Below are positions 16,807-63,299 of a stretch of 64,000 bases of DNA, in pieces; position 1 is the first letter of the stretch, and each line of letters opens with the position of its first letter. Both the position numbers and the translations under genes were made by a program. Below the pieces are notes generated by a model, which saw only the letters and a program-made list of their open reading frames with translations, was not told the DNA's origin and searched no databases. Source of the stretch: Amphiura filiformis (Eukaryota); contig NC_092646.1 of assembly GCF_039555335.1 (NCBI RefSeq), positions 58,138,946 to 58,202,945 on the forward strand, read 5' to 3'.

Positions 16807-17018
16807 ATAAAGGATAGTTCTCACCTTCTATGATGCTTCGTTATCTACCAGTATATCAATTTTTCACAACAAGCGCCCAAAAGCACCCAAATTTGCCTTA
16901 ATGTGGTGCTTTTAAGGCACTTTTGCCCAAATTTGTTTTTGCACTTTTGCCCCGGACTTTTACCACATAGGAGTGTAAATTTCAAATGGGGCTTCCTAAT
17001 TAGCGACAACACTTGAAA

Positions 17019-17100
17019 TCTACACCCCTATGTGTGAAATTTAGGTCATGTCTTCCATAGGGGGTGTATGGATGTCAACTGAAATAACCCATTTGAACTG
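17019..17100. mobile_element. Fragment of the family-D palindromic MITE (the ccatacaccccctatggaagacatgacc family).
   Basis: tgtcttccatagggggtgtatggatgtcaactgaaata matches the family consensus. Confidence 0.5.
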
Positions 17101-29404: not shown

Positions 29405-29410
29405 CTCATA

Positions 29411-41228: not shown

Positions 41229-42433
41229 AATCATCTGAGTAACCAATCAAAGTAGCACTATTCAAAATTACTGTAGCGATTCGTCAGGTTCAAATATTGC
41301 AGGTTGGTTTTATCAAACCAATAGATTAGTGGTGAAATGGTGGTAAAAAACTCACCAAATGACGTTTCATCCATCTAGATCAGGCGGATTTCTTCAGAGC
41401 TGCTTAAAAAACTTTTTAACCAATTAACAAAAACGATGGTTACACTCAAAAGTAAAACATAATCCGATATAAATTTTCCGTTGAACAAACTTTAACAAAA
41501 ACGTCACACAATGATACCAACTTTATTACATGTATTCCTGTTTAATAGCGACTACAAACACAGATTGAGAATTTGGATAGGCCTATAATTTCACACGGAA
41601 GGACGGAAAGATGGACAGCATCGTTTTTACAGTCTTACTCCATTCCATAGCGTAAGACAAAAAATATGGGGATTGATAGGACCATCCTATCAGAAGGTCA
41701 AAATACCTTAAACAATGATTTAACCAAAATTGTCTAAATTTTTTCTTGCAAAAATAATTCAAGTAAAGAATAATTTGCACTGTCTAGGATGCTTCCCTAC
41801 ATAAGTAATATTGCAAAATAGGTTAGGCCCAATAGAGTTTGTTGGCGTAGTGCACGTTAGAATATGACCGTTGCTAGGTCAACTGGCTCACGCTTTCTTT
41901 GTTATGAACCACTGATCGAATAACCATGTAATGGCATTACGGTATATCCCATTGAAACAATAGAGGGCTCCACCTAGGTTTCATTATCATTGAGGTATAG
42001 GACTTTTTATTTTTTCGGAGAAGAGCAAGTAGGGCAACTACTTGATTATATTTCTACACGTTCGTACTACATACTCTGAAAATTTTAGAAAATTCGCACG
42101 AGTCCGTTTTTTTTAAATCACAATTTTGTTCCTAAAATGGGGGTTATAGCGCCCTAAAATAAAATGGACTCGTGCGAATTTCCTCAAATTTTGCAAATGA
42201 TGTAGATCTGGAATTTAACATCACTTGCATTACATTCCAGATGTTAAAACATCTGGAATGTAATGCAAGTGATGTCATTGCTGCTCTTCTAAATTCATTT
42301 TTAAAATGTCCGCCCCAGACCAAGGTGCTCCAACAAAATCCACAAAGGCCCATCAGAAAAGTACAAAATTTCAAAATTCTATCGAGAACCTATTAATGCA
42401 TGCATACACATCCATTAAGATTCCATACAGGCA

Positions 42434-42624
42434 GAATTGGGATATTCCATGTGAACTCTATACTCCCTATGGAAGACATGATCTTAATCTTCCACACTGG
42501 GAGCATGGATTTCAAATGGGGTTACCTGAATGGCTGACTCTATTTGAAATTCATACTCCCAGTGTGGAAGATTCAGGTCATGTCTTCCATATAGCGGGTG
42601 TATGGACTTCAACTGGAATAAGCT
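42434..42624. mobile_element. Palindromic MITE, family D. The consensus is ggctattccagttgaaatccatacaccccctatggaagacatgaccttaatcttccacacagggggtgtagatttcaaatggagtcacccattcaggtaaccccatttgaaattcacactccctgtgtggaagattaaggtcatgtcttccatagggggtgtatggatttcaactggaatagcc. This is copy D1.
   Basis: Matches the family consensus. ORF 42306-42650 is a read-through of this repeat. Confidence 0.8.
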
Positions 42625-42681
42625 ATTTGAACTGGTTAGTGACCACATAGACATTATATTTGTCAGGTGATGCAAAAATAG

Positions 42682-42876
42682 ATCTAACATTGCCTCAGAT
42701 TGGTCAATTATGTGATATCTTTACTTTAATCACCAATCAAAATGGAGCTTTGCAAATAATTCACCCCAATTTTTTTGCGTGGTTAAATTATTCTAACAAA
42801 GTTGCTGATTGGTCCAATTGATAATGAAAACTTCTTTTTGGCCAATCGGCAGGTAATTCTCATGGGGTTAAACTTC
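42682..42876. mobile_element. ~195-bp repeat, family E, with TIRs ctgccgat / atcggcag. It holds at least four CCAAT or ATTGG motifs (gattggtcaat, caccaatca, gctgattggtccaattg, ggccaatcgg). This is copy 1; copies 2 and 3 are at 45849-46050 and 58264-58460.
   Basis: The three copies are more than 90% identical. Confidence 0.7.
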
Positions 42877-43668
42877 ATAACTACATGTATATTTAAAATC
42901 TCAAAAAGAAAATTTTTGAAATGTTCCACTGAGGTTTATAGGAACGGGTCACATAATCTAGGCCAGCTTAATGCTCTTCGTGCTAGCCATATAAAAAGTC
43001 CAAGTTTTGAGATATTTTCTCAAAATATCAAGAACTATTTTGAGAACTACTGAACCAATACTAGGCTTGTTTGTACTCATTTCAATGCATTTTTCATGCT
43101 GATTCCAAATATGGTCATGAAAATTTACAATTTTGAAATTTATGAATTTTTTTAAAACTTGTCGTCTGCAGTCGACACCAGCGTGGAGAGAGTTAAAGGC
43201 AAATCACTACCAAATAAAGATGTCTAACAACAGTCACAAGGTATTAGATAATACTAAAACAAATCTTTATTAATGCTGCTGCAATTTAATAGAACTTATC
43301 TACAATTATTTAGCAATGCAAATGACAGTACATTATTGTACTATAAGAAAAAGTGACTATAATAAATCAAGGTACACTTCTATACGCTTTGGTGTCATGT
43401 TTTACAGTATATAGCACTATGGACCACAATGGCCTCATCCAAATGGCCTAGTTCAATAACCTCAATTAAACAATTGTATTCCAAAATTTGACCTCAAGTT
43501 GCAGATGAGTTTTTGTACCCAAATTTTCAAATGTCATTTAATGAATGTACAAATGTATTGAGGTTAAAGAACTGTGCCCTGATAGATGAGCATGTTGTGG
43601 ATCCTAGTGCAAGATTTTGCTAACATACTATTCTACTGACCCTTCACCGCCCTGTTCCACATGTAGAC

Positions 43669-43832
43669 ATTGGCGGCACCAGGATTTTTTTTCGGGGGTG
43701 GGGGGATTGGGGACAAAGTGAATTTCTGGGGGGCAAAATCGACAAATTGCGTAAAATTGCCGCAAAAAGCGGAAATTTACGTAATTTGGGGGTTTTTGCC
43801 TCAAAACTGGCCCCCCCTTGCGCCGCCACTGC
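43669..43832. mobile_element. MITE, family B copy, with TIRs tggcggcaccagg / gcgccgccactg.
   Basis: The internal block gcaaaatcgacaaattgcgtaaaattgccgcaaaaagcggaaatttacgtaatttggggg is homologous to 16280-16340. Confidence 0.65.
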
Positions 43833-44014
43833 ATTTAGACACAAACTACAGTTCCTTAACTCAAATGAAGTATGGCCAAAAGGTTTTTTACTATCAAGTG
43901 CAGTGTTTTCTTAAGTCAAAGTTTAAACAAAAATATTTTGTGTCTTCTAGTTTTACGCCAGCGTAAACACTTTATATATCGCCTGTTTTTTTAAACATCT
44001 TTCATCCCTGACCT

Positions 44015-44210
44015 GTGACTGTGTTGGGCAATTCCAGTTGAAATCCATCCACCCCCTATGGAAGATTTGGTCTTAATCTTCAACACAGGGAGTGTGAATT
44101 TCAAATGGGGTTACCTGAATGGGTGACTCCATTTGAAATCTACACTCCCTGTGTGGGAGATTAAGGTTGCATCTTTCACAGGGGGTGTATGGGTTTCACC
44201 TGGAATAGCC
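44015..44210. mobile_element. Family-D MITE, copy D2.
   Basis: Consensus match. Confidence 0.8.
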
Positions 44211-45167
44211 CAAAGTGTTTGTTTATTTGTTTGTGTATGTGCTTGTACTTTTATTGCATCCAATTGAAAGACTTTTCCTGGATTGCAAACTTTTATAATA
44301 TATAATTCAAGTGAAAAAATCAAAACAAAAAACACAACAACACCATCGTGATAATCTTAGCATACCTTGACCTACAAATGCAATAGAAATAATATCATAT
44401 TTGATACTAATTGGTAATATCAGTAACCATTTCCACTCCCATGACCACACTCATATTTTGCCCAATAAGCCTGAAAAAATGTGCATTTCTAGGGTTGATA
44501 CGCCAAATTTCCCATAAAAAGTACTGAATTTCTCATCATTTTCCATGTATTTCAAATACCACAAATTTTCCTGGAATCCACAATTTTTCCATAGACATGT
44601 TCTTTGTATGAAGCAGTAATTAAAAATGCCATATCTTTAAGCTTCTTCATGAACTTAAAAAACAGTTAGTACTTTTTTTGCTTGGGAGGCAGGTGTATAG
44701 GAATCAATCTGTTCCAGGCCTGTAGTCGTAATTCCTGGCTGTGGACCTGGGGCCCATTTCAATAAACTTTGACCCGTATCTCAAGTAAACATTCGCAAGT
44801 TACAAATACCCTTTTCCTTGAAGTAAATTTACAGAAGGTTCCCTGTAGTAAATCCCTAATATTACTTATGAAGTGTAACGTTCATAAGTTTATTGAAATG
44901 AACTTACGATAAGTTAGGATTGATTTTGAGACTTGCAAAGCTTTGTAAAGTTGAGTGAAATGGACTCCAGGTCTGCTCCAAACGTAAAATTACCTACAGA
45001 TGATGTCTTTGCAAGGAAGATATCTTACTCTTCCCAGCATTCTTTGCAACACAGTCACCTCATTTCATCAAATGACACTCCCAGATTCCCTTTGTTTTCA
45101 TTTTGAGAATCTACTGGTTAAATATGGTCTAATAGTCAAGAAATTTATTTTGTAAGATCAGGATTGA

Positions 45168-45490
45168 GGTACCGTATTCATTCCAATAAGCGCCCAGGGC
45201 GCTTAACAAAGTCATTTTGGGTGGACGCTTTTTTTTACCTTGTTTGCGTAAGGGGCATTTATTAGAGACGAATTTACATATGTTATAAACGGGTCCTGAG
45301 ACGTTCTAATAGCTTTTCTGATGCAGAAAATGTATTGCAAGTTTACGCAGGACTTGTACCTGTAGTCCTGCAGCTATTTCACTGTATCAACATCTATCTG
45401 TCACATTAATGGTACCCTTTAGCAAATTGAAAATACCCTGGGTGGGCGCTTTATATTAGGGCATGGGCGCTTATTGTAATGAATACGGTA
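45168..45490. mobile_element. MITE with ~30-bp TIRs (gtaccgtattcattccaataagcgcccagggcgc / gcatgggcgcttattgtaatgaatacggtac).
   Basis: Direct reading. Confidence 0.7.
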
Positions 45491-45848
45491 CATTTTGTCA
45501 CTATCGACTCATGTTGCATTAAATCAGTACAGGAAATTAAAATGGGAGAAATGGGTTACGGGAAGTCCTGGATATCTTCTCTACAGCATTTGTACTTAGG
45601 AGGACAGGTTTGTGGAAATGTTCACTTTTGTTAATAATATTACCAAAAGCAGTTGCCACACCCTCAATTCACTTACTCTATAATAATTGAAAAACAAAAC
45701 AGAACAAGCGTAAGTTAATATTTAATAAGAATTGAGAATGATAATTATGTAAATATAAAATTGAATTGGCAAAGAGATTAGAGTTAAGGAGTACCAACTT
45801 CACCATGTTTGCGTGTAACACATGGAGGGCAAAATGGTGTACCACTAC

Positions 45849-46050
45849 CTGCCGATCTAACATTGCCTCTAATTGGTCAATTATGTGATATCTTCACTTT
45901 AATCACCAATCAGAATGGAGCTTTGCAAATAATTCACCCCAATTTTTTTTGCGTGGTGAAATTATTCTAACAAAGTTGCTGATTGGTCCAATTGATAATG
46001 AAAACTTCTTTTTGGCCAATCGGCAGGTAATTCTCATGGGGTTAAACTTC
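45849..46050. mobile_element. Family-E repeat, copy 2.
   Basis: See 42682. Confidence 0.7.
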
Positions 46051-46271
46051 AATTTAAAGTCTGTGTTTGTTTGCGTTGTGTGAGCAATGAAATTTGCCCA
46101 TAACACACGCTAAGCGCTACGAGTGCAATTTGTAGTTCAATTTCTGTTTTTTGTAGAAAAATGGCAGCAGTAACCTATTTTGCTATGTGTGATCAACCAA
46201 TACATGGCAGATTTACCATAGCGTTAATTACGCACAGCACTATTCCGAGTTGGTTCTCTTTAGGCCTAATA

Positions 46272-46436
46272 GGCTATTCCAGTTGAAATCCATACACCCC
46301 TTATGGAAGACATGACCTTAATCTTCCACACAGGGGGTGTAGATTTCAAATAGAATCACCCATTCAGGTAACCCCATTTGAAATTCACTGCCCTTGTGTG
46401 GAAGATTAAGGTCATGTGGATTTCAACTGGAATATC
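46272..46436. mobile_element. Family-D MITE, copy D3.
   Basis: Consensus match. Confidence 0.8.
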
Positions 46437-46845
46437 CCTATCTCTTTGTACACACTAGGAACCTTTCCATGTACCTCATCACTAAAACGATCCAATTTTC
46501 AAATGTAAAATGCAAATTGTGAAAATATATTAATCTGCTTGTTAATTACATGTCTATTTTACAAAATGAGAGAATTTGAACTATTTTATGGCAACAAGTT
46601 GGATTGGACTATTTTGTTCTGAAACGCTATACCTTCTTTTGAGATTTTATATCTCCATAATAAGATGAACATTCACATGGGTTTTTAAGCAGCCTTTACC
46701 TTTTACTTGATTTAGATAATCATAAATTGACCATCTGTTCTTTTGTTGGATTTGAGTCACTATAGGCAATGTAACATTATTCTATCCCTACTCACTATTC
46801 CAGAAAAATACAGCACTAATTTTTTGATATTAAAATGGGGGGTAC

Positions 46846-47606
46846 TGGGGGCAATTCACCCAGTCAGAACTCTTGCTCCCGTGTTTCCCCCCAGAAAAAA
46901 ACGCAAAATTACGAAAATGTCAACTTTCTGCGGTAATTTTTACGCATAAAATTGGATGATTTTGCCCCCCCCATGAAATTCACTTTGCCCTCTCAATGCC
47001 CCCCCCCCCCAACAAAAATTCCTGGTGCCACCACTGGACACCCATATGTGTAGAGGGTTAAATACTGTTCAACACACATTATTGCGTATCAAGAGAAGTT
47101 TATAATGTTACAAAAACAAAATTTTGCGCCAAACTTTTACCATAAAATAGCCAAACGGACCAACTACAGGCCTGTGATTTTGTTTCTGTACATCCCTGTC
47201 ATCTAGTGCAAATATGATTTGGGGGGGGGGGGTACTGGCACGAGGGTGCAATTCACCCAGTCAGAACTCTTGCTCCCGTGTTTCCCCCCAGAAAAAAACG
47301 CAAAATTACGAAAATGTCAACTTTCTGTAATTTTTACATAAAATTGGATGATTTTGCCCCCCCATGAAATTCACTTTGCCCTCTCAATGCCCCCCCCCAA
47401 ACAAAAATTCCTGGTGCCACCACTGGACACCCATATGTGTAGAGGGTTAAATAATGTTCAACACACATTATTGCGTATCAAGAGAAGTTTATAATGTTAC
47501 AAAAAACAAAATTTTGCGCCAAACTTTTACCATAAAATAGCCAAACGGACCAACTACAGGCCTGTGATTTTGTTTCTGTACATCCCTGTCATCTAGTGCA
47601 AATATG
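46846..47606 (+). repeat. Tandem duplication of a ~390-bp segment (unit 1 at 46846-47220, unit 2 at 47221-47606). Each unit contains a family-B MITE remnant (right TIR cctggtgccaccactgg at 47021 and 47411).
   Basis: The two units are ~95% identical, and cagtcagaactcttgctcccgtgtttcccccc appears at 46861 and 47258. Confidence 0.8.
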
Positions 47607-47739
47607 TGTACACTGCCCTGGGTATACCACATCCAGTATAAAGATAATGTATCATTGTTTCAAATTCTTAAAACAATAGTCTTTAGAACTTGTTCAGGAT
47701 ATAATGTTGTGGAATTCTAAACTTGATAGGCAGACCCTA

Positions 47740-47900
47740 TTCACTCGGTCGGACATCCGGGAGCATTGTCCCCTTTGTGCCCTTTGTACAAGCGCGCGCA
47801 TGGCAACCAGCTCGAGAAAGGGGAACTGCACATGCGCTGCACATGCGAACACTGGTTTTACAAGGCTATTTCCCCTTTGTGACGTCAGCCCGACCAAGAG
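47740..47900. other. Isolated ~160-bp CpG- and GC-rich block in an AT-rich region, containing the CRE palindrome tgacgtca and the direct repeat cccctttgtg.
   Basis: About 11 CpG in 160 bp against roughly 1 per 100 bp elsewhere. No function is assigned. Confidence 0.3.
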
Positions 47901-48347
47901 AATTGATAGCACAAAATTGATTGACAGCCTGACAGGCCACTTGCAACAAAAATACACCAAAAATAATGATGTCACCCATAGCATATGAGACAATAGAAGC
48001 ACGGCAGCAGCTAAAAACAGTAACTTTGTTCTCATTCTTAAACACTTCAAGAGAGTGGTCATTGAGGGCACTATCAGCTGGGCAATCAGCTCAGTTTTCA
48101 TTTAGTTTTAGGCCTGTAGTAAAAAAAATCAGTGTTTTGTTTTTCTTAAAATTTGCACATTAATTATGTGCTTCAAACATCAAGTTGATGACACATTACG
48201 CATGCATGAGTCCTGCTCAAAATGTATGCTTAAACAAGATAATGCTGATTGCCACTGTTATTATTGCTATATTGCTTTTTACAAAAATAAAACTTACAAT
48301 TGCAATATGCAAAAAAAAATGCCTTTATCTAGTTTCTTTAACTAAGA

Positions 48348-48524
48348 GATTCCAGTTGAAATCCATACACTCTATGAAAGACATGACCTTAATCTTCCAC
48401 ACAGGGAGTGTGAATTTTAAATGGGGCTACCAGAGTGGGTGACTCCGTTTGAAATCTGTACCCCATGTGTGCAAGATTACTGTCATGTCTTCCATAGGGA
48501 GTATGGATTTCAACTGGAATAACC
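48348..48524. mobile_element. Family-D MITE, copy D4.
   Basis: Consensus match. Confidence 0.8.
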
Positions 48525-50430
48525 AAATAAACTTCTCTTATCTTCCAAAAACTCACAAATGTTTTACTGATTTAATATTCCAAACACTTTGTGTTCTTTT
48601 CAAACTGAATAATCTATCTCAAGCTGAATATCTCAAACTGAATATTCTTTTATAAGCAAACACAGTAAAATTTATTATATACTACAAATTATTCTTCAAT
48701 TTGGAATCATGTTCAAACTTTTTTGTAAGACCACTTAACCATTTAACAATTTAAAAATACATCATAACACTATCTTTGTACTCAAAGTTTGTACTACTTC
48801 TTGTTGGCTCACATTATTCTCATACCCAAATACAGAAGTAAAACAACACATATGTGAGTGATTTGAATACCCTGGGTATGATGCAACATAATCATGATAT
48901 AAATGAAGTAAAACGCTTAAAATTAGACCAAAACCATACTTCTGTGTGCTTATACTCAGCACTCTATATTTTATTATTTTTGATTCAGTATTACCTGGTA
49001 ACCCACAATCCGATTCATCAACAGCCAGCACGTTTCTACTGATGCTTAAAATAAGGGTTGTGGTGTGTACTGCAAATGCTTTCTTTGCATAACCCCCAAC
49101 TGCTTTTAAGGTGTATGATGGGATACATAAAATGTACATAAATAAAAGAAAACACCCAGCAACCGTTAACCATTGTGTTTCTACTGGCATCACGGCTTGG
49201 GCTGCAAAGTGCCAACACCGTATCGCTCCAAACTGATGCGTTTCCACTGAGCACATTAACCGGTAACTAAACCACATCAGCCGCCAACCTTTCACCAGTA
49301 GAAACATGCAGCTTGTTTTCTGAAATACCATTATGCAGCAGCATAGGAGGCTTTAAAGTGTCAATATTGGTAGCATATCATGTGATATTTACTGCATATG
49401 GTGTTCTTTTTTACTGGTGGGTGGGGTGGGGAAGTCAACTCCTTAAACTGCCACCAACCCCCTCAGATGTATTTCCTGATATATTTCTTTATTCTACTAT
49501 TCTTTACTCTCCCAACACAGGGGGTGGGGAGATTTTGGTAGGGGTGTATGGCGCAGAGTGCCTAACTAAGAACTGATTTCGGGCAAAATAGGGGTTTGAG
49601 GAACTGAAATTATGGGCAAATTATAGGTTGTGGAGTCAAAAATTTCCCATTTTTTTCTTCAAATTTCAGCTTAAAGAGCTACAATTGTCAGAGTTTGTGG
49701 CTCAAAGATATTGTATGAAATGTTTTTTGTATAATCGGGTCAAAAATCATTACATTACCCAAGGACCAACAGGGTCTAACTTAAAGCTCACATCAGCTTA
49801 TGCATAATGTCACTTGCACCCTGGGTATGAGAATACCAGTCAACTGAAAATCACACACCTGTAGCGACTCTCTATAAAGTTTTCTTTCTTTTTATGTAAC
49901 ATATTTTACACTTTCAATGTACATTCATTTTAACTAAACACTGTCATATAAATAAGTTAATGGTTTTTTTTAGAAAACAACAATTATTTACATATATGCA
50001 ACATTTATGTAACATGTACATTGTCTTTATCTTAAATAATAAATAATACAGGTTTGCCTTAATATCTGGTAACAGTGTGTAAACTCAATAACCCTGACAA
50101 TTATTCATATTAAACTACATGTAGTTTTTACAACTCATTTCAGATAAAAGTGAATGCAAACTTACTATAAGTAATACTAGAAAACAATACTAGAAAACCA
50201 TAATAAAGCGTAAAACTGTATTATTTGAAAAAGAACATTATAAATATAAACGTTATTCACTTATGCAGACTACCCAATTACCAAATCTTCCTTAAGTTTT
50301 TAGCACAACTGATTAAAGTTTTTGAAACAAATTAACGAGTAAAAAATATATGAATATAATTATCAACTTCAATGTGTTACCCTATAGTCCATATTTGTTG
50401 GCACTATTATGCAATTCTAAACTTCTATTT

Positions 50431-51290
50431 GCCATTCTATTTGAAATCCATACATCCCTATGGAAGACATGGCCTTAAAGGCCCATTCAGTGATTTGCTC
50501 ATCCGGACGATCGTAAAAATCATCAAAATTCAGATTTTGGTACCTTTGTAATTGGCATAGATGTGCTAACATAGCCTGCTAGTGGTTCGATTCGAAAACC
50601 GTGTATTTTAGACAAAATAAAGCATTTGCATGATTCTGGACTTTTGATACTGACAGTACAAAAGTCCGACTCGAGATCGAAAGAAGCTCACTCTACACCG
50701 TACCAACACGCGTTGCGTATTGTTTCTACTACTTATTACATCAGTAGCTACTATTTTAAACAAAATACACAATTTTAACTGTTTTTCATATTTGAATTGA
50801 CCGTTAGTTTGCCTCGGTGACCTTTAATTGCTTACTTTGTTTTCTACTACAAAAATTAAGCGTCTGTTTTAAATCAATTTAGACTCTACTTCCCCGTGTT
50901 AGAAACACTGGACTAGGAAGTTTTTCCAGTCGATTAAGTGGCGCACTGTACGAAAATCTCGATCTTCACGAGTCGATCTGAGTTGAGGGAGAAAAACTTT
51001 CTAAAACTTCTGTTTTTGACTAATTTGTCGATGTATTCAGGGGAAAAGTGGTTTAATGAAATTCTGTAGACTTATTCTTTGTTTCTAAGCAACTCTGACA
51101 AATTTCCATTTTTTTTAATGTTCCTGTGAAATCACTGAAAGGGCCTTTAATCTTGCACACAGGGAGTGTAGATTTCAAACGGAGTCATCCATTCAGGTAA
51201 CCCAATTTGAAATTCACACTCCTGTGTATAAGATTCAGGTCATGTCTTCCATAGGGGTGTATGGATTTCAACAGGAATCGCCTATTCTAT
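50431..51290. mobile_element. Family-D MITE, copy D5, split into 50431-50478 and 51148-51290 by a nested insertion.
   Basis: The left part ends ...gacatggccTTAA and the right part resumes TTAAtcttgcacacagggagtgtagatttc. The intact family sequence has a single ttaa at this point. Confidence 0.75.
50479..51147. mobile_element. Non-autonomous DNA transposon of 669 bp with 19-bp TIRs (aggcccattcagtgatttc / gaaatcactgaaagggcct), flanked by a TTAA target-site duplication. This is compatible with the piggyBac superfamily or another TTAA-specific one.
   Basis: TIRs and TTAA flanks read directly. A homologous 5' fragment lies at 19124-19250. Confidence 0.7.
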
Positions 51291-52994
51291 GATCTAATGA
51301 TAGTACTGTAAAGCAGGATATTATAGTGAGATTTTTTTTGCAATTTTAACTTTTCTTAACAGTTTACGGTTCTAAACAGTTTAACTGTTCTAAACAGTAA
51401 ACAGTTACGGTGTCTATGATTCCCATTTTCAAACAGCTACGCATTAAACGTGCGAGTCCAGATATATTTTTGCTGGTTTTTGAATTAATGGTTCTAAAAT
51501 CATCGTAACCACTTGGGAAGCCCACCCTCTAGATAAGCAATTTTATTCCAAAACTGGGGGTGGATTTATAATTAGGGAGGAGCTAGTGCTTGAATTTAAA
51601 AACAATCTTCTTAATTTGCATAACAGTCTTACAGATCAGATGTACTGGAAATTTCAATCATCTGTCAATGTTTTTAAGTATGGAATGTCAATTTTTAACG
51701 GATATTTTTTACAGTTGTTCATAAACATGAGAGCAAAGCTATGATTTGATTAAAGAATTTGGGCAAAATCACTACTGGGCTTAAAAGCTATAAACCACTT
51801 GGCATGTGACGTCATTGCCCGGCAGTATGCGTGCGCATTATGACAATTTACATTGTTCTTTGCCCTGCATCATAGTCTGCTAAGGGCACGTGCATTTTAA
51901 ATCGCCCGCCACATTTCATACAGTACAAGAAAGCCATTGATCAGTGTAGTGGCTCGTTCGAGCATATCGCCTTTGTTGATAAACAGTGATGTCAAGTGGT
52001 CTATAGCCAAGTGCATTCTTTTTTTTCCAGATTGTCTTGAAAAATAGGGATGGGGTTATACCTGAATGTGGGCTAAAACCCGTGTGTTTACGGTAATCAT
52101 GAAAAACGCAAAAATAAACCTGCCTTATATACATCCCACTTTACAGTACATGTATGTCAGAAAAGATATCGAACCCTTCCCAGAATCCTTTGCAACATGA
52201 TGCATCACCTCATTACAGCAAATTCCACTAACTCCTATTACTTTGTACAGGTTCCCTTTGTTTTCATGCCGAGAATAGACTGGCTAAACATGGGTCGATA
52301 GTTTTGCAAGATCTTGATGTGCACTGTTCATGTGTTGCTATCGACCCATGTTAGAATGGAAGAAATACATTGTGGGAAGTGTAAGATATATTTTCTGACA
52401 GTGCATCAACTTAAATAAACTAACCTAATCATATCTTTGGCATTATTATGTAATTCTAAGCTTCTATGCTATACTAATTTGCCATAAAATCTATTCTAAA
52501 ATAAACCATTACATTGCTTGATTTCATATATTATACATACATGTATAAAGACTTATCAATATCAAATATGGAAATAAAATCAAACGATTGCTTCAATCAA
52601 AATTTATCTTCAAAAAAACTTCCAAATTCTCAAACTTGTTGCGCTATGACGGTCCTTGTAGCCTTTTCCATTCGTTTATACTGCAAGTCAAGTTACCTTG
52701 CTTGCATGTGGCTGTGGCTATTCTATTTAAATCCACTCTACCCTATGGAAAATGTCACCTTTCTTGAAACTAAATGGTCAACCCATGTGAATTATTTTGT
52801 GCGATTTATATCAAAAACTTAAAATTCACCTGAAAACAGTGCAAAACATTAAAATGCAGTTGAATTTAACTCAATTTGGGCCATGTTTAGGCAATTTTGT
52901 TTGATTTCCAACACTTTTTCCAGTCTTTGGATGCAAAGTGCTGAATCTGGAATGGCTCTAACTATTTATTTTGGTTGGAATTCAAAAATATTTC

Positions 52995-53187
52995 CTCAAG
53001 GGGGTTTGGTTTTCAAATGGAATAGTCTATTGGGCTATTCCAGTTGAAATCAATACACCCCCTGTAGACTGTAGATTTCAAATGGAGTCATCCATTCAGG
53101 TAACCCCATTTAAAATTCACACTCCCTGTGTGGGAGATTAAGGTTGTGTCTTCCATAGGGGGGGTGAGTTTCAACTGGAATAGCCCA
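52995..53187. mobile_element. Family-D MITE, copy D6, with an internal deletion.
   Basis: Consensus match. Confidence 0.7.
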
Positions 53188-53218
53188 CTTGTTTAACTTA
53201 TTCTACAACTGCCTGTTT

Positions 53219-53557
53219 AAAGGAGTATTTCGTGATCCTTGCATCCTCTTTTTATGACATTTTTCAGTAGATATCCACGAAAAAAGCTTATTCCCAAAAT
53301 TTCAGTTGATCCCGATTTTGCGTTTGCGAGTTATGCATGATTATGTGTATTACACTGCTCCATAGACAATGTGTTGTAATTTCGTTCTGGTGCACCAGAA
53401 CGAAATTCAAATTTAGCGATATTTTTGCTCAACTAATTAATCTGCAAGAAATTTTGGTACATAAACATGTAGCCAGAGGTAGCCAGTGGTATAAAAATCT
53501 CAACTTTTTTTGAGAAATATGGGGGGATGAGGCTGTGGATCACGAAATGCCCTTTTA
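53219..53557. mobile_element. Family-F MITE, copy 2 (full length).
   Basis: About 88% identity to 30238-30578. Confidence 0.7.
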
Positions 53558-53847
53558 ATAATGAAAAATAAACACACACACACACAAAAATCCCCAAAAA
53601 CACCCCACTACACTAATAATAATTATACAATGCCTTTGAAAGAACACAAAATGCAATTTAAATATCGCCATTGTTTGCACTAATTAAGAACTGTTTTTGA
53701 TAAAACTAATAATAAGCTAACAATATTGATAAGTCTTGCAATAATTATTGGATTTTCATCAAACAAACACAATCATTTATTCCTGAGCTACAAAGGTAAT
53801 AATAATATACTAATCATGGGAAGTACTGGTCAGTCAAAATGCTATCG

Positions 53848-54030
53848 GTTATTCTAGTTGAAATACTTACAACCCCTGTGGAAGACATGACCTTAATCTT
53901 CCACACAGGGAGTGTGAATTTCAAATATTCAAATACTTGAATGGCGACTCCATTTGAAATCTCCACCCCCTGTGTGTGCAATTAAAGTCATATCTTCCTC
54001 AAGGGGTGCAAGGATTTCAACTAGAATAAC
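53848..54030. mobile_element. Family-D MITE, copy D7.
   Basis: Consensus match. Confidence 0.75.
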
Positions 54031-55845
54031 CTAACCTTTGTACTTGTGTGTCTTCTTTTGTTTATTAGTTTGTTTGTTTGGATGAATGAAAATGAGTTAT
54101 TGTTTTATAATCATTCAATCTCATGAAATATGTAGCTAAAATGCAGACTTTTACTTATGAACATCTACAAGTTCAAGTGCGAAGGTCAACTCATCGAAAT
54201 TTTTCCCAACTACATTGTTGGTATCAGCACAAATTTAAGGTCAACATAATTGCACATCAAACTTAGGTCAAAGGTCAGTTTGGTAATTTGCATATATTTC
54301 GGTTAAACAAATGAAACAAGGACCTCCGTATCTATTCAGCGGCTTTCAGTCGCAAGTAAAGCTGACCAAAAATGAGCATGATGCATATGAAGTTGCCAAT
54401 ATTGAAGAGAATGCTTTCACTTCTCAGCATGCTGAAATTGCGTGCAAAATGTGTCCAATGTTTCTGATGCTAAAGCAGACCTAGTACTAAGTCATCAGCC
54501 ACTTGGCAATATAAATACATAAGGGCACATAGGTCGAAGGTCATTAGTTGACAGAAATATACCAGGTCAAAGGTCATTAGGTGACAGAAATATGGTCAAA
54601 GTTTATTTCATTAAGATTCATAACATACAACCTCTGTTGAATAACAAAATGTTATTTTTGTGAAATTTCCATTTTCTTCAGAAAAATAATTTGAGGATCA
54701 AAGTGTCAGGTTTTTGGGTAAAAATATGTTGCTGTTTTTATTTTCCAAACTGAGCATTTCTGCCCAAATTTGAACTCACAGATGGATTTGTCAAAACGTT
54801 GCAATGACAGTTTGTTACGCTTCCAAACTGATGAAACAATAAGACAGAATTGTCTGTCAAAATGTAATATATAAACATGTGTGTCCATCTACATGTAACT
54901 CTTTAAAATGTAAAATACACTCTTTTATGGATTGTCTATATGCAATGATCATGCCAATGGAGTAACGCTGTACTCTTTTTGAGAGTGAATTGCTGTCTTG
55001 TTTACTCTTTCCAAAGTGAAATTTACTCAAATGTCATTCCATCAGGCAATTGTTTTATTAAAGTGAAATTATTTCTTTTCACTATTTTACATTTAGTGAG
55101 TAGCACATACCGTATTTAAATCAAATAGTCGCCCCCCCCCTCAAATAAACGCCCCCACCACTTTTTTCAACCAAGATGTTTCAAAAATGCCGATATTTCC
55201 ATGCTATCTTGTGTAGTAAGCTTACCAAGTTGCGCACATGGTCCATAATAGCGTCAATAATTGGCGAAAATCTGGATCAGAAACCCGGAAGTGAGCCAGA
55301 AGTCAGTGTTTCTAGTTCATAGTTCGTCATTTTAGCGTGTGTTTTTAGTTTACCTAATGATTTTAACGGGAATTATTGTTCTAAAATTGACCTTGAATAA
55401 ACGCCCCCCCCCCCCTTGGGAAAATGTAACGCCCCGGGGCGTTTATTTGACGAAATACGGTAACTTATTTGTGGACATTGCTTTTAGAAAAGAAATCTAT
55501 TTCAGTTGGTTTCCTAAATCTATATTTGTAATATCAACTATATATTGTACACTCTTATCAAGGCATCATCAGGGCACATCACACTCGTTTTATGTCTAAA
55601 TTGGTTCTAGTTTATGGCAAAATAACGTACATTACAAAGCACATTTGGCTATTAATTTTCAACCTCTCTTATGTACTTGTGTCACCCTCATTGCCAAATC
55701 AAGCAATTATCGCAGGGCGAGTGAAGAAGTCCTATCTGTGATAGCTGCCATATAGACATTTGATAATTTCTGCATTTTGTATTGTACACATCAGAAAATA
55801 TGACACCTGGCAGCTATTTGAGATTTCAACACTAACCCTCCAATT

Positions 55846-56120
55846 GGCTGTTCCATATAAAATCCACACTCCCCCTGTGGAAGATTTTGGAAATATCTTC
55901 CACAGGGGGAGTATGAATTTCAAATGGAATGAGCACATTAGGCAGCTCCATTTAAATTTCATACACCCTCTGAGAAAGATTCAACCTGAATCTTCCCGAG
56001 GGAGAGGAGTTTCAAATGGAGCTACTAATGTGTTAATTCCATTTGATATTCATACTCCCTCTGTGGAAGATATTTCCAAAATCTTCCACAGGGGGAGTAT
56101 GGATTTCAACTTGAATAGCC
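55846..56120. mobile_element. Family-D MITE, copy D8, with ~1.5 units.
   Basis: Consensus match. ORF 55760-56128 is a read-through. Confidence 0.75.
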
Positions 56121-56277
56121 CAATATGACCAGTGATGATTAGAAAGCAGCAGTGACGATGGGCATCCCCGGAAAATTCCAACCACATAACTTAAGAAATG
56201 GGCTATTCCAGTTGATTGCCAAATTCAAATCACTGGAAAGACACAGTACACTGCTCGTTATGTGTAAATTTAAGAAA

Positions 56278-56372
56278 TGGCTATTCCAGTTGAAATCCAT
56301 ACACCCCTTATGGAAGCCTTAATCTTCCACACAGGGGGTGTACATTTTAAATGGGGTCACCCATCACTGGAA
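56278..56372. mobile_element. Family-D MITE, partial copy D9.
   Basis: Consensus match. Confidence 0.6.
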
Positions 56373-56413
56373 AGACACATTACACTGCTCTTTTTGTGTA
56401 AAATTTAAGAAAT

Positions 56414-56600
56414 GGGCTAGTCCAGTTGAAACTATACACCCCCTATGGAAGACAAGACCTTAATCTCCCAGACAGGGGTTGTATACTTCAAATGGAGTCG
56501 CCCATTCAGGTAACTCACTTTGACATACATAATCCCTGTAGGAATGAATATAAGGGCAAACCTTCCACAGGGGGTGTATGGATTTCAAATGTAAGAGCAC
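56414..56600. mobile_element. Family-D MITE, copy D10.
   Basis: Consensus match. Confidence 0.75.
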
Positions 56601-57739
56601 AATTTGCCCCTTCTTTTTCACTGCTAGTATTCTGCTCAACCCCTGCATTCTTTTCATCCAAAAGATTACACTACTACAAACCAAGGAACAAGCTATGTAT
56701 TGGTATTTAGAAGATTTGGAACTCTTTAAAATTTAGAAAAAGTACTGTGAAGAAATGTACTACTAATTTTTTAGTGTAGGAATGACATAAAATTGAAAAG
56801 TGAATAATCTTGGATGCAAAAGGAGTACTGACATTGTTGACTATATTTTTAATTGAAAACGTGATGTACTTTTCTACTAAAAGCTGTGACAGTTAATAAA
56901 ATTTACCAAAGATGATATTCTCAAAGATTACCGACATAACATTGCACCATAAGTAACGCTGTGGCAAATTGGCTACCTTGGTTTGTCGCTCATATCAAAC
57001 GATAATTTGCATCTTTAGAAATAGCATGTAGAAGTGCTTGCGTGTATTTTTGGCACAACACGTTACATATAGAATGCAAATGACCACATATATTGAATCA
57101 AAAGTTTGCTGGGTGCTTAGCAAAATAGCCAGGTACATTAAATGGCCTCCATGAGTGACACACATAAACGAGGGAGTCGGTACTCTTTGATTCTACCTCC
57201 ATGAGTGACACACAAAAATGGGGGAGTCTGTACTCTTTTGATTCTACCTCATTGAGATTTAGAGAATTGGGAAATGGCAAGTGCTGTGAGAGCAAAAATA
57301 GCTTAATATATCTTCAATGTTCTGAAAATAGTATTTGAGCCTATATATATTTTGGAATAAAATGGTATCAAATTAATCTACATGAATATATACAGGGACA
57401 ATTTCTATGAAAGTGAGCTTGTTTGAGTTTTGAAAGAGGCCGTCAAATATAATAATTTAGACCAATGAAAGATGGTTATATTATCCAAAATAGAAGCAAC
57501 TTTGAAAAAAGATTTTATTCAAACTATTCAATTCAGTACTGTCACTCTTTTGTTGAAAATTCCAAGCATAAATATAAAATGCTGACCACCAAGCCCCTTC
57601 TTCATAAAAAGTTTGACTATATGAATTAAATCTGTGATAGTACTGTCTTTTTGATGAGTACTGTCATTTTGAAAAGACTTATGAAAGTATTTGATATTAA
57701 TAAACTTATGAAACAAGCCTAAAGATTGAGAAGGCCATT

Positions 57740-58096
57740 AAGGGGGTACTACACCCCTGCTCAATTTTTTGCCTATGTTTATGTTTTTCTCAAAAATTAT
57801 AGCGCATCGGTCATAAGTTAAGATATGTCTATTATAGGGGCAAGGACTACAACTACTGCACTGGAAATTGTATTTCAGCACAGACAACAGTTGTGGAGTT
57901 ACAGTCAAAAATGAGGGAACCCCCATATTTCATCAATAAATCAATAACTACTTGCCTTGAGTTGCTGAATTTTCAGTGCAGTATTTGTAGTCCTTGCCCC
58001 TATAATATAAATATCTAATTTGTTATCAATGCGCTATAATTTTTGAGAAAAATGCAAAAATAGGCACAAAATTGGCCAGGGGTGTAGTACCCCCTT
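57740..58096. mobile_element. MITE with 20-bp TIRs (aagggggtactacacccctg / caggggtgtagtaccccctt) and extensive internal self-complementarity.
   Basis: Direct reading. Confidence 0.8.
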
Positions 58097-58263
58097 AATC
58101 AATACCATTACTAGTTTAGCTTAAAATGCAAGTGGGGTAAAATAACATCAATATTTTACAAGAAATTTTGTTGATATTTGAATTTCCCTCTAACTAGTTT
58201 TGATCACAATGCTTCATCAATCATTTGGTTTATTCCTTTAGCTGTTAACGCCCTGAGCACTAC

Positions 58264-58460
58264 CTGCTGATCTAACATCGCCTCTGATTGGTCAATTACA
58301 TGATATCTTCACTTTAATCACCAATCAGAATGGAGCTTTGCAAATAATTCACCCCAATTTTTTTGTGTGGTGAAATTATTCTAACAATGTGGCTGATTGG
58401 TCCAATTGATAATGAAAACTCCTTTTTGACCAATAGGCAGGTAGTTCTCATAGGGTTAAG
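58264..58460. mobile_element. Family-E repeat, copy 3.
   Basis: See 42682. Confidence 0.7.
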
Positions 58461-59240
58461 ATATTTAAGTCAACCAAATATGACAAGGCTTTAGTAGTCA
58501 TACAGTGATATTGAGTCATATATTAAGGTCCCCTCTCATAATAACCATGGTAACCAAGTCCCAATGTCCCATCTTCAGATAATACTGGGGTAGTGCAGTT
58601 TTTCTGTCCAGTCAAGTCTAATAAAAGTGAAGTCACAGGATTGTAAAGTTTTAAAGAAAATCTTCATACATATTTTGTTTCCACTACTAGAAGAAAATGA
58701 ATATACACATTTCTTTTGACAAAATGTGAGCAACCTGATCAGAAGGCTGTCTGCTCCGAGTCCAAGTCTCATTCTTACCTACTGAGCCAATAATCAAGGA
58801 AGAGTTTTCTGAAGTCTTTTGATCAGATATATATATAACAAGAGAATAAAAAAAAATGTATGGCACACTAGCCCATTTTAACACAATATTATAATAGAAA
58901 GATTACATGCATATGCAGATATAAAGCCAGAGGAAAGAAACCTGCCTGTGCAGGCAATTTGAACCCAGTGCCGGATTTACCACTGGGCCAGATGGGCCCG
59001 GGCCCAAGGCCCCCTAATTGCCATGTGCATGTTCCTTTTTAGCCCCACAACACCATAGCTGAGTCATTGCATTGTTCTGAGCCATACTCCGCATGTGTAA
59101 ATCCTGTTGAGTTAGTCTCAAACTATGTGTCCTGAGTAAGTTGCAAGTTGAGTCAATTTGTCCAGTCATATAATCATTTATTTATCAGTATCAATCATTA
59201 ACAAAATTTAGTTGAGTCATTGTATTCGACGATCGCACGG

Positions 59241-59425
59241 CCATCTCAAAACGAGGTTCTACCCGCAAAGTGCTGCGTATAGCGTGTGCCTGTCAAACGC
59301 ATGCTTTAAATGCTGTGTACGCTTTGAAAAAGCCTTCTGGCTCATTTCTAGAAAAGTGTGAGAAACAAAAATGCACTTTTTGCGCATGCGTTTGCAGGTA
59401 GAACCTCGTTTTGGTAGCAAGATGG
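59241..59425. mobile_element. MITE with ~29-bp TIRs (ccatctcaaaacgaggttctacccgcaaa / tttgcaggtagaacctcgttttggtagcaagatgg).
   Basis: Direct reading. Confidence 0.7.
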
Positions 59426-60184
59426 TGGATCCGTGCAAAGGGTGAATAGTGGTAACATAATATCTGAAACTGAGTCATACAAGTCATTACTGCACAGAAG
59501 TATGATTGCATTTCTCCTGAAGCACCACTTAAAAGTACCCTCTTTCAAGTTCACCTTATCCACCAATGTATTAAAAATATCACATAGCTTGTTCCTTGGT
59601 TTGGTATAATACTGATTGCTGAACATTTCTGATTTGTATATAGATATAATGTAAACTAGTATTCACACACATTTAATACCACAAGTTTTTGTCTTTTCAT
59701 TTACCAATCACGTATTTTTTTATGGTGGGGAGTCATCTTCATATTCCGGAAATTCATTATGCCATACTGAAATATGTATTATGTTCAGTTTCAAAAGTTA
59801 TATATTTATTCCAAAAAATGTATTTCCTTTTTTCTTTCTATAAAAAAAGGGGGAGGTTCTCTACATGAATGCAAGTACCATAAATTCGACTAATAAATGC
59901 CTGTTTTGCAAAGTTACTAGCCCTGGGCACATCAGTAGTTGTGACTAATTTGCATACTGCATGTTATGAGGAATATTATCTGATCTGATCTACTCAGGCC
60001 AAAGTCAGGAATTTTGTAGAATTAGTTTTTACCATTTCTAGCTTGCTCAGTGCCTTAGCCTACTGATATTGAAATGCCTAATGCTGGCTTCGAGACGCTT
60101 CATCATGCAGCTTGCACTGTTCAGCAACGCTCCAAAATGATATTGACTTGAATTCAATGCCCAGCGATGCTGGCGCTTGGGCAA

Positions 60185-60335
60185 AACGGTGAGGTAATCG
60201 ATATATCGGCTTGCCGCTGGTCACTGGCTAGCATTTCTGGTGCAACTGCGCAGTGAAGCAAAATCATCTTCAGAGCGGCAAAGTGGCAAGCAGCAGGAAA
60301 GTATGAAACCAGCGTAAGTCCCTGGCATATTTGAT
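60185..60335. repeat. Second copy of the 2845-3010 dispersed repeat.
   Basis: ggcaagcagcaggaaagtatgaaaccagcgtaagt. Confidence 0.5.
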
Positions 60336-60490
60336 TACAAAGTTATGAACTTTTAATATGTCCATTTTCATGTTTTTTTGTTATTATATGTTTTTGTTAA
60401 TTTTTGTTTTGTATTTTGGCGTAAATCTCAATTTCATTATTGCAGACTTTGGTTTGAAATTTAGATCAGATTATGTCACATATTACATTG

Positions 60491-60672
60491 CACTATTCCT
60501 GTTGAAATCCACACACCCCCTAGCTGTGGTAGACATGGCCTAAATCTCCCACACAGGGGGTGTAGATTTCAGATGAAGTCCCATTTAGGCAACCCCATAT
60601 GAAATTCACACTCCCTGTGAGGAAAATAAAATCCATGTCTTCCAAGAGGGTGTATTGATTTCAACTGGATTT
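60491..60672. mobile_element. Family-D MITE, copy D11.
   Basis: Consensus match. Confidence 0.75.
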
Positions 60673-60984
60673 GCCCATTATGATGGAAATAGATGCTGAT
60701 TTCATATCCATCTCTGACTCGATATTAACTAGAATACTGAAAATAATCAAAGTGCCTTTTTCTTTCTTCTAAGTATCTAAATATATACATGGGAAATACT
60801 GCCATCGATTAAGAAAATGGTTATGATATTATAATATATATAGTTACCAAACAGTTATTTGATGAATGGCTACTTATAATTATACTTCAAATATAGAAAA
60901 TAGAATTACAAATGAAAACTTCAATAATAACATAGCTATGCATAGTTGTCACTCTCAATCAGTTCAATACGTCTCCTTCTACAC

Positions 60985-61166
60985 TGGGCTGTACCAGTTT
61001 AAATACATACAACCTCTGTTGAAGACATGACGTCAATCTGCCACACAGGGGGTGTAGATTTCAAATGGAGTCACCCATTCAGGTAACCCCATTTGAAATT
61101 CATGCTGTGTGGGAGATTGAGGTTATGTCTTCCATAGGGAGTATGGATTTCAACTGGAATAGCACT
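60985..61166. mobile_element. Family-D MITE, copy D12.
   Basis: Consensus match. Confidence 0.75.
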
Positions 61167-62243
61167 ATGGCAACATGGGATGCAATTAAACAAAATAAGT
61201 CATTTCTCAAACAAAGTTTCATTTTTGTTTTCATTTATCATTGTCCAGTTTATTACAAGCAATAATATGCTGAAAATCCCTTCAAATTTATTTTCCTCTG
61301 AAAATATGATTACAGACATGAAAATTCCTTCATCCAGACTGGAAATTCAACATTTCAGGTAAGTCTTTAATTTGATTATTTGCTGAAAACAATCATATAT
61401 GAAACAATTGGACTACTTTTGAACACAACTGAGAGAAAATTTTTTAGTATTTCCTTCGACCAGTGGTCAACTTTTCAAGACTGTTGTCCGTCTCTTCTGT
61501 GTTTACACTTGTGTAAACGCTCGGCGCACAGCGCAGACCACAGAAGTAATAAAAAAATTATTTTCGACAAAAAACTTTGCACTGGTTTGATCTCCTCAAA
61601 CAAGCTGATGAGTCCATTCTTACTAAAATGGACTTTGATCAAAAGTCTTGTTCAGATTTTTTTAAAAGTATTTTTAATTGGTTTCAGCAAAATGATAATG
61701 AACAAATCTCAGGAAATCTGGTATATCCAATTTTTATGGGATTTTCAAAAAAATTTAGCATATGTGAAATGGACATGAATGTTATAAAAAATGTCATACT
61801 GGCTAGGTTGTGTCTGATACCCTCTGACATAGCCTAATACTAGCCCAGTGTGATACCTCAACGGCTAGCCCAATAGAGCAGATGCACAACAATTGCATCA
61901 CTATTTAGCAAACTGAGACATCCATTCAAATGAAAAATGCAACTTTTAAGTAAATACTGTCAGAAGGATTAGGGGGCTAAGGATTGATCCCTGTGGAACT
62001 GCAATTGCTTGAAATGACTTCTTTTGTTTAAATGCATCACATATCGGCATATAGGGTCACTTGGGGATATACATGAATTGTACACATTGCTTTATGATAA
62101 GAACACACACCTCACATACTAGTTATTAAGGAATCAAGTAACACAATATACGCTGGGTCTTAAATTGAATCCAATTGCTCCAAAGTTTCTGTTTTATGAC
62201 ACGTAGTCAACTGAATTTCGTAATGGGCTAATCAATTCTAAGC

Positions 62244-62636
62244 TATTACGCAATAAGAGGCGCCGCCAGCGGTTTGCGATGTAATCGTGATGTATCATGG
62301 GAAAAGGTCGACATCAAGTCCAGCATGTCAATCGAATATTACCATGCTATTACATAGGAACACGTGACAATATTTTTTAGTTTGGCAATATAACGGTATT
62401 ACACGCAAATCGATAGAGAAAAAAATAATTGTGCACATTTCAAATCACATTATTAAGTATTATTGAGTATCGATTCGCGTGTAACACCTTTATTTTGACA
62501 AACTAAAAAATATTGTCACGTGTTCCTATGTAATAGCATGGTAATATTCAGTATTATGCGGACTTGGATGTCGACCTTTTCCCATGATACATCACCATTA
62601 CACCGCAAACCGCTGGCGGCGCCCTTATTGCGAATA
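62244..62636. mobile_element. Fold-back element, ~390 bp, with a near-perfect hairpin whose axis is near 62440.
   Basis: tattacgcaataagaggcgccgccagcggtttgcgatgtaatcgtgatgtatcatgggaaaaggtcgacatc pairs with its reverse complement at 62565-62636. Confidence 0.75.
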
Positions 62637-62812
62637 GCGAGAATTGAAATCCATCCACCCCTGTGGAAGACATGACCTTAATCTCCCACACAATGGGTGT
62701 AGATTTCAAATGGAGTCACCCATTCAGGTAATCCCATTTGAAATTCACACGCCCTGTGTGGAAGATTAGGATGTGTCTTCCACAGGGGTGTGTTGATTTC
62801 AACTGGAATATC
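62637..62812. mobile_element. Family-D MITE, copy D13, abutting the fold-back element.
   Basis: Consensus match. Confidence 0.75.
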
Positions 62813-63299
62813 CCATTCAAGGCAATAAGTTCCTCTTCCCATACTTCAAACAATGTCCTATTGTTATGATGTAAATTGATTCCTCTCTGGGTACAGGTGG
62901 AAATACATCAGTGCACGATGGAGTGTATAAAAGTTTGTCCTGGTTGGCAAAGAACTACGGTCCAAAAAGAGACGATTGAAAATTAAATTTCATTCTTTCT
63001 GCCCCTATTATACTGCAAAATATGTGTCCAAGAGGGTAGTCGGACACCACCCCAGGTTTCAACAATGCTACACTCCATAAAACTGCTGCAGCTGCATGTT
63101 TCCATAAAAGGAATGAACTATAATTGATGAAATCCAAATATTCCAGAGTAAACCACCATCAAGATAACTAGCTGCAGTATGCTACTTTCATGGTGTGTTG
63201 CTTTTAGCAGAAAAATATAGATGGGCCAAAACTTGATTGTCTTAAATTCACAATATTTGCAGCATGCTGAATGAATTCACAGGGTGGTGTGGCCGAGTC

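Follow-up and report, generated by a model that had tools for sequence, protein, structure and literature searches.

Among described palindromic elements, Made1 of primates measures 80 bp, made up of two 37-bp terminal inverted repeats (TIRs) plus 6 bp, and is the source of the hsa-mir-548 family (PMC1784062). DTC84, a modular miniature inverted-repeat transposable element, or MITE, of the bivalve Donax trunculus, combines direct core repeats, a microsatellite, short inverted repeats and a putative AA target duplication (PMC3879986). These are the closest analogues of the repeat family described here, Made1/mir-548 for its palindromic design and the modular bivalve MITEs for its variable module number. 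The family occurs in a 64,000-nucleotide stretch of Amphiura filiformis DNA (assembly GCF_039555335.1, contig NC_092646.1, positions 58,138,946 to 58,202,945 of the forward strand), which we call the window and number from its first letter. We consider it likely to be an old, neutrally decaying palindromic MITE family, of which about 14 copies inserted independently into exon-free DNA beside a gene.

The likeness to Made1 is one of design. Both elements are short, non-coding, nearly wholly palindromic and present in many copies, and would form a very stable hairpin if transcribed. However, mature microRNAs (miRNAs) are documented for the 80-bp Made1, whereas the element of the window is about 190 bp long, consists of four arms in two modules and shows no sign of constraint on its stem. 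With DTC84 and the pearl-like elements, the modular MITEs of bivalves, it shares a variable number of units, related tandem arrays and palindromes at unit junctions (PMC3879986). Unlike in DTC84, its modules are inverted and its termini, at ~35 bp, are long; a duplication was not seen.

Other systems are less close. Tourist- and Stowaway-type MITEs are mobilized by PIF/Harbinger or Tc1/mariner transposases and are defined by TA or TWA duplications. The present family resembles them in size class, TIRs, lack of coding sequence, a probably high number of copies, insertion into AT-rich surroundings and accumulation beside genes, but TA/TWA duplications were sought and not found, and the window's Tc1-like element has unrelated termini. 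The satellite-like repeats carried by Helentrons in Crassostrea gigas (PMC7492417) are likewise modular, and units of the family form short tandem arrays in a related genome; by eye, however, the family lacks Helitron-type termini. Foldback transposons such as Tetris of Drosophila virilis (PMC4079207) have, like the family, two long inverted arms of sub-repeats, blocks of which can seed tandem arrays. They usually far exceed the family in size, carry long sub-repeat arrays in each arm and include some coding copies, whereas the family is fixed at ~190 bp. Finally, the long inverted repeats of LIRBase (PMC8728187) share the structural potential alone, here a 60–85-bp double-stranded stem if the element is transcribed.

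Results

Census and structure of the family

We built a family profile from seven copies and used nhmmer to search both strands of the whole 64-kb window. The search returned 17 family loci, 15 of them at 42.4–62.8 kb (Table 1), and each was matched on both strands, as a palindrome would be. The first 42.4 kb contain the other two, a partial copy and a weak fragment. The element's terminal 15-mer, TTCCAGTTGAAATCC, has 41 matches when up to three mismatches are allowed, against 3.2 expected. Because two of the cluster loci are parts of a single copy split by a nested element, the 15 loci correspond to about 14 insertions. Of these, 11 are full-length, and the others comprise the 283-bp variant, one half copy and fragments of element ends. 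Repeat finding at 42–63 kb produced many overlapping direct and inverted families, all of which are facets of this one palindromic element.

Full copies are 162–194 bp long, typically about 190 bp (mode 187–194), and not ~170 bp as first estimated; variants of 90 bp and 283 bp occur beside them. The family makes up 12% of the cluster sequence. The copies had been described as near-identical in length. They are similar in length, but not near-identical in sequence: they are 73–92% identical to the local consensus (8–27% diverged) and only 65–85% identical to each other in pairwise comparisons (mean 75%). Among full copies, three are in the plus and nine in the minus orientation. The family has no coding capacity. 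Its copies contain nothing beyond read-through open reading frames (ORFs), and a Pfam search of the ORFs of at least 72 aa at 42–64 kb gave no match. Nor do ORFs 42306–42650, 55760–56128 and 61065–61265 have one; all three exist and are read-throughs of copies, as proposed initially. A literature search for four 15–18-mers of the element and for the accession prefix JAAUXV found no paper.

Sequence and alignments agree on a consensus layout of A-A'-A-A', that is, four arms of ~45 nt alternating in orientation. GGGCTATTCCAGTTGAAATCCATACACCCCCTATGGAAGA and its complement form the outer arms, while the inner pair, ...TCTTCCACACAGGGAGTGTGAATTTCAAATGGGGTTACC with its partner, consists of diverged but recognisable versions of the same motif. 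The outermost ~35 bp on each side form inverted termini, GGGCTATTCCAGTTGAAATCCATACACCCCC and its complement. Because the four arms alternate in orientation, the element has the look of two ~90-bp hairpin modules joined together and can also form one long hairpin from a single strand; of these two pairing options, two short hairpins or one long one, the latter is the more stable. Module number also varies: the variant at 56275–56364 has one and that at 55843–56125 has three. The three-module variant had been taken for a dimer at 55846–56120, but it is a single 283-nt palindrome of three hairpin modules.

Related copies in a second genome

When a 19-mer from the element terminus was used as the search key in a metagenome collection, it was found in at least 120 contigs, and among the matches listed nearly all of these came from assembly JAAUXV01. 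Profile-detectable copies were present in 99 of the 120 contigs among the matches listed, in 166 hit intervals. The JGI contigs recovered by the same search (L014, L057, L058 and L074) have no profile hit and were set aside as chance matches. The central 24-mer of the window subfamily, by comparison, had zero matches in the metagenome collection. Its one match in genome_contigs, in a 'Parcubacteria MAG' (L121, 5500–5523), lies inside bacterial coding sequence and was rejected as chance. Since the central 24-mer is absent from the metagenomes, only the termini are common to both genomes, as transposase recognition sites predict.

An alignment of 11 window copies with 25 JAAUXV01 copies gave the same picture. 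Mean column identity among the JAAUXV01 copies is 0.81 and 0.91 in the outer arms, 0.61 and 0.68 in the inner arms and 0.46 in the centre, whereas among the window copies it is uniform at 0.81–0.86. The termini, GGGCTATTCCAGTTGAAATCC...GGATTTCAACTGGAATAGCCC, are conserved in both sets, so that the family has the shared TIRs of a MITE. Conserved termini around an interior free to vary are the signature expected of ends recognised by a transposase.

Among the matches listed, JAAUXV01 copies are at most ~76% identical to any window copy, and other short repeat families common to the window and the JAAUXV01 contigs are 70–85% identical. From these values, JAAUXV01 holds DNA of a related but different organism. 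One such family, at 27812–28059 and 43022–43197, matches contigs L017, L037, L029 and L070 at 70–85% identity. Another dispersed repeat family of ~190 nt (42681–42871, 45854–46044 and 58269–58459), whose members are 67–92% identical, has weak JAAUXV01 matches.

In six JAAUXV01 contigs (L033, L075, L054, L078, L010 and L005) the family forms head-to-tail arrays of 3–6 units. Contig L033 has an array of six ~70-nt half units at 3800–4250, and L075 has ~90-nt monomers separated by ~35-bp spacers at 1020–1370. These arrays are a satellite-like organisation of MITE modules.

Mode of spread

The assignment to a palindromic MITE family made in the initial annotation is upheld by the small size, the lack of coding sequence, the long conserved TIRs, the unique DNA between copies and the many copies in another genome. 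Mobilization by a transposase is a further step, and several results count against it. We searched for target-site duplications (TSDs) with a fixed-offset grid, with a free-offset best match and permutation control, and with a test of whether A-W-T at the ends is a duplication or an extension of the TIR. There was no excess of duplications at offsets 0–8 and lengths 2–9 in 28–53 copies (mean best match 2.32, against 2.36 in the permuted control), and A-W-T on both flanks occurred in four TSD-like and four TIR-like cases, with no direct-repeat relationship. No empty paralogous site turned up when the joined flanks of 122 copies were compared with the collected sequences. No autonomous element with the family's termini is present in the window, and no transposase was found among the long ORFs of 293 kb of related contigs, although that sample is far too small to weigh much. 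In addition, one of the two conserved termini served as the search key, so that its degree of conservation among the metagenome copies is overstated. Short duplications may have been erased by age, given the 8–27% divergence of the copies. As neither a TSD nor an empty site nor an autonomous partner was found, the family is not assigned to a superfamily, and cut-and-paste mobilization is inferred from the terminal conservation.

Helitrons have 5'-TC and 3'-CTRR termini with a sub-terminal 3' hairpin, and they insert between A and T without duplication. The flanks of the present element read ...T, element, A.... The family might be a foldback or satellite-like module and not a TIR/transposase MITE, spread via Helitrons or Helentrons, by recombination or by hairpin-driven replication slippage. 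We keep this alternative alive because a TSD is missing and tandem arrays exist, namely the head-to-tail arrays of JAAUXV01 (L033 and L075). It would also accommodate module numbers of one, two or three hairpins, and links of MITEs or Helentrons with satellite-like arrays are described for bivalves and Drosophila (PMC3879986; PMC7492417, PMC4079207). However, both termini are sharp and are conserved inverted repeats in two genomes, with a variable interior between them. Most copies are solitary, have a constant length of ~190 bp and lie in unique DNA, and their ends, GGGC...GCCC by eye, are unlike those of Helitrons. We therefore regard a foldback or satellite-like origin as unlikely.

Folding and decay of the hairpin

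Each full copy folds into one long hairpin of 59–85 pairs, including G-U pairs, with a folding energy (dG) of -72 to -130 kcal/mol and a z-score of -8 to -20. The ~80-bp perfect stems first attributed to the copies do not exist: pairing is imperfect, and the longest uninterrupted run per full copy is 12–27 bp. Watson-Crick complementarity of the arms is 61–82% within copies, against 94% self-complementarity in the consensus.

If the hairpin had been maintained as an RNA, arms of the same copy should match each other better than arms of different copies. They do not. When pairing partners were permuted among copies, 83.5 +/- 0.5% of the cells in the window alignment were paired, compared with 84.0% in the real alignment, and 89 of 500 shuffles reached the observed value. 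The covariation score in the same alignment was 0.120, against 0.123 in the shuffled control, and the covariation term of RNAalifold was unfavourable (+3.28). Inner-arm complementarity was the same within copies as between them, both in the window (0.645 vs. 0.647) and in JAAUXV01 (0.544 vs. 0.547). The complementarity of the arms is close to the value expected if both arms of a 94%-palindromic ancestor decayed independently. Decay of the copies after insertion looks neutral, and their hairpin came with the palindromic design as a by-product and is not an RNA structure under maintenance.

These results bear on the possibility that the hairpins are functional small-RNA precursors, whether as hairpin RNAs, endogenous small interfering RNAs (endo-siRNAs), miRNA-like RNAs or a PIWI-interacting RNA (piRNA) locus retained for its role. 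Every full copy does form a long stable hairpin, with the z-scores given above, and there is a weak orientation bias of nine minus to three plus copies. Palindromic MITEs are documented sources of miRNAs, as Made1 is of hsa-mir-548 (PMC1784062), and for siRNAs the same is documented of long inverted repeats (LIRBase, PMC8728187). Against this stand the absence of covariation, pairing equal to that of the shuffled controls, and complementarity within copies equal to that between them. No family copy matched Rfam at gathering thresholds. The best scores of miRNA precursor families (MIR8565, MIR5649, mir-1 and others) were 55 bits, where the cut-off is 136, and 53, where it is 100, and these sub-threshold hits fell on both strands of the same copies and so reflect structure only. 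Nor did any sub-segment conserved across copies diverged by 8–27% from the consensus suggest itself as a mature RNA. A retained small-RNA function is accordingly improbable, whereas any transcript from the copies may be processed incidentally by Dicer. A more elaborate scheme can be imagined, in which the ~90-bp module multiplies via hairpin slippage or template switching and the 20-kb cluster is a transcribed hairpin-RNA, endo-siRNA or piRNA-type locus that polices the family; no finding points there, and we hold it to be highly improbable.

Clustering of the copies

The clustering of the family was assessed by a scan statistic, and its significance applies within the 64-kb window only. The densest 20.4-kb span contains 13 of the 15 loci (P = 0.0005), or 11 of 13 if the group at 55.8–56.6 kb is counted once (P = 0.003). 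The high local density of copies pointed out at the start is thus real as an enrichment within the window. Around the ascertained JAAUXV01 copies we found about one further copy per 16 kb, a rough figure from another species whose short contigs break at repeats. This density resembles that of the first two-thirds of the window (one per 21 kb) and is 10–15 times below that of the cluster.

The spacers of 0.5–4 kb between copies are unique in a self-BLAST (word size 9, E < 1e-6), save for a few unrelated short repeats. The similarity of copies does not fall with the distance between them (Spearman rho +0.24, P = 0.08). Unique spacers and the lack of a distance effect together mean that the copies are independent insertions and not the result of segmental duplication. 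The only duplication that affects family copies is a small triplication at 56190–56450.

Local amplification by duplication, which had been offered as one cause of the density, is essentially excluded: tandem or segmental duplication of one copy-bearing segment could account for the spacing of the first five copies at 1.6–2.2 kb and has a genuine small counterpart in the triplication with an element end (period 134–141 bp), but the spacers are unique, neighbours are no more alike than distant copies, the sign of rho is opposite to expectation, and copies occur in both orientations.

The cluster coincides with exon-free DNA downstream of a plus-strand SRCR/EGF/HYR gene. A gene-poor region under relaxed selection, another of the initial suggestions, fits this location, as there is no Pfam-detectable ORF at 42–64 kb and the exons are at 6–37 kb. 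The insertion hotspot also suggested there, or local hopping, fits just as well, and either may lie behind the clustering.

Coordinates of the copies

Table 1. Copies, variants and fragments of the palindromic MITE family in the window, with the elements and rearrangements that affect them.
Position	Strand	Feature	Evidence and details
16961..17094	+	Partial copy outside the cluster	nhmmer score 90.6, model positions 59-193
39408..39467	.	Weak fragment, not in the cluster	nhmmer E = 2e-5
42435..42626	+	Full-length copy, 192 bp	nhmmer score 199.7; 81-pair hairpin, dG -117.6
44024..44213	+	Full-length copy, 190 bp, best-preserved palindrome	nhmmer score 204.1; 91.6% identity to consensus; fold of 85 pairs, dG -130.1, z -19.8
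46268..46442	-	Full-length copy with ~18-bp internal deletion, 175 bp	nhmmer, alignment, fold
48342..48529	-	Full-length copy, 188 bp	nhmmer, fold; 80.4% identity to consensus
50430..50477	-	One end of split copy (rest at 51147-51286)	nhmmer fragment
50478..51146	.	Nested unrelated TIR element, 669 bp	Interrupts family copy; TTAA each side
51147..51286	-	Other three arms of split copy	nhmmer, sequence
52986..53027	.	Solitary terminal arm fragment abutting next copy	Repeat family D5; 15-mer match at 53008-53022
53028..53190	-	Full-length copy with ~33-bp internal deletion, 163 bp	nhmmer, alignment, fold
53845..54033	+	Full-length copy, 189 bp	nhmmer, fold
55843..56125	-	Three-module palindromic variant, 283 bp	Inverted repeat I14, 96-nt arms, 90% complementary; fold of 120 pairs, 51-bp perfect run, dG -183
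56190..56450	.	Local triplication, period 134-141 bp	Repeat D16; start-to-start spacings 134/141 bp
56275..56364	+	Half copy of a single hairpin module, 90 bp	nhmmer model positions 5-96; 33 pairs
56411..56604	-	Full-length copy, 194 bp	nhmmer, fold
60487..60680	-	Full-length copy, 194 bp	nhmmer, fold
60982..61169	-	Full-length copy, 188 bp	nhmmer score 197.9; fold
62638..62819	-	Full-length copy, one terminus degraded, 182 bp	nhmmer score 191.6; alignment

The element within the split copy is non-coding and has 18-nt inverted termini, AGGCCCATTCAGTGATTT and AAATCACTGAAAGGGCCT. At the junctions, where TTAA is duplicated, the sequence runs ...GGAAGACATGGCC TTAA, insert, TTAA TCTTGCACACAGGG.... 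This is a clean case of nesting, with a member of a TTAA-targeting transposon family as the insert. In the triplication, the repeated unit consists of the element's 5' end and ~45 bp of flank; a terminal fragment at 56195–56220 sits within it.

Other features of the window

The window has a G+C content of 34–44%. No convincing prokaryotic features were found in it; the scan for bacterial promoters and terminators remained at background level and is irrelevant to such DNA. Three exon-like ORFs lie on the plus strand: an SRCR-domain ORF at 6286–6699, whose homologues in a set of 5.8 billion proteins all carry PF00530 (the best is 49% identical), an EGF-domain ORF at 28262–28498 and a marginal HYR ORF at 35404–35691. 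Together with an ORF of 136 aa at 36923–37330 (+), they probably belong to one large multi-domain gene. The 136-aa ORF looks coding, and it has no homologue in the same protein set. The set of SRCR, EGF and HYR domains, taken with the Penelope-like and Tc1-like remnants described below, has a metazoan look.

A decayed Tc1-like transposon occupies 12749–14313 (-), with 46-nt TIRs and frame-shifted transposase fragments (HTH_Tnp_Tc3_2, E = 6e-9). It is the window's sole transposase remnant and was considered as the autonomous partner of the MITE family, but its TIRs are unrelated and it was rejected. Fragments of a Penelope-like retroelement at 27557–29413 include a reverse-transcriptase motif, YVDD (+), and a GIY-YIG endonuclease ORF (-). 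At gathering thresholds, the sole Rfam match in the window is a marginal one to the tRNA covariance model at 20867–20939 (-), which scored 29.5 bits against a cut-off of 29, with no call by ARAGORN; it may be a tRNA-derived short interspersed element remnant or a pseudogene.

Several palindromes are unrelated to the family. One, at 57737–58099, is a near-perfect palindrome of 363 bp (dG -192) that has ends GGGGGTACTACACCCC... and is flanked by TTAA at either end; it probably represents a further MITE family, with a piggyBac-like target type. A 216-bp palindrome at 62334–62549, with 82-nt arms that are 94% complementary and a perfect stem of ~60 bp, adjoins the family copy at 62638–62819. Other families are represented by a 200-bp palindrome at 15079–15278 (dG -133) and by nested inverted repeats at 15530–16000. 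A perfect palindrome of 58 bp at 42218–42275 attracted hits to mir-1 and other miRNA families on both strands (37–38 bits against a cut-off of 45.6). It was rejected as a mir-1 gene, since sub-threshold hits on both strands are an artefact of structure alone. The palindromes at 15079–15278, 42218–42275, 57737–58099 and 62334–62549 indicate that small hairpin-forming repeats are general in this genome and not specific to the family.

Two stretches of tandem repeats complete the picture. At 46837–47606, within the MITE-rich region, two tandem units of ~390 bp with C-rich tracts are 96–100% identical and look like a recent local duplication. The first 1375 nt of the window (1–1375) are a tandem repeat array with up to 13-fold self-similarity and long spurious ORFs in several frames.

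Discussion

The reading that we prefer is that of an old MITE family whose copies inserted independently and then decayed. The outer ~35 bp on each side would be the part relevant to mobility, as putative sites at which a transposase provided in trans was bound. Such a transposase would have moved the elements by cut-and-paste in a burst of activity long ago. The copies may have become clustered because elements re-inserted nearby, through local hopping or a regional preference, or because insertions were better tolerated there, and probably both contributed. After insertion the copies would have decayed neutrally, leaving the hairpin as a by-product. One copy was later hit by another transposon, which fits an old family.

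The family shows no sign of selection on its hairpin. Clusters of old MITEs in DNA without genes are widespread in the genomes of animals and plants and raise no new question by themselves. The consequences are mainly for annotation and for tracing the family. The family should be masked, the three read-through ORFs treated as repeat artefacts, and the sub-threshold miRNA-like hits treated as artefacts of structure alone. A relative age can be read from the nested insertion at TTAA and from the figures on neutral decay. With the conserved 35-bp termini as a probe, the family, and perhaps its transposase, can be sought in the source genome and in related ones.

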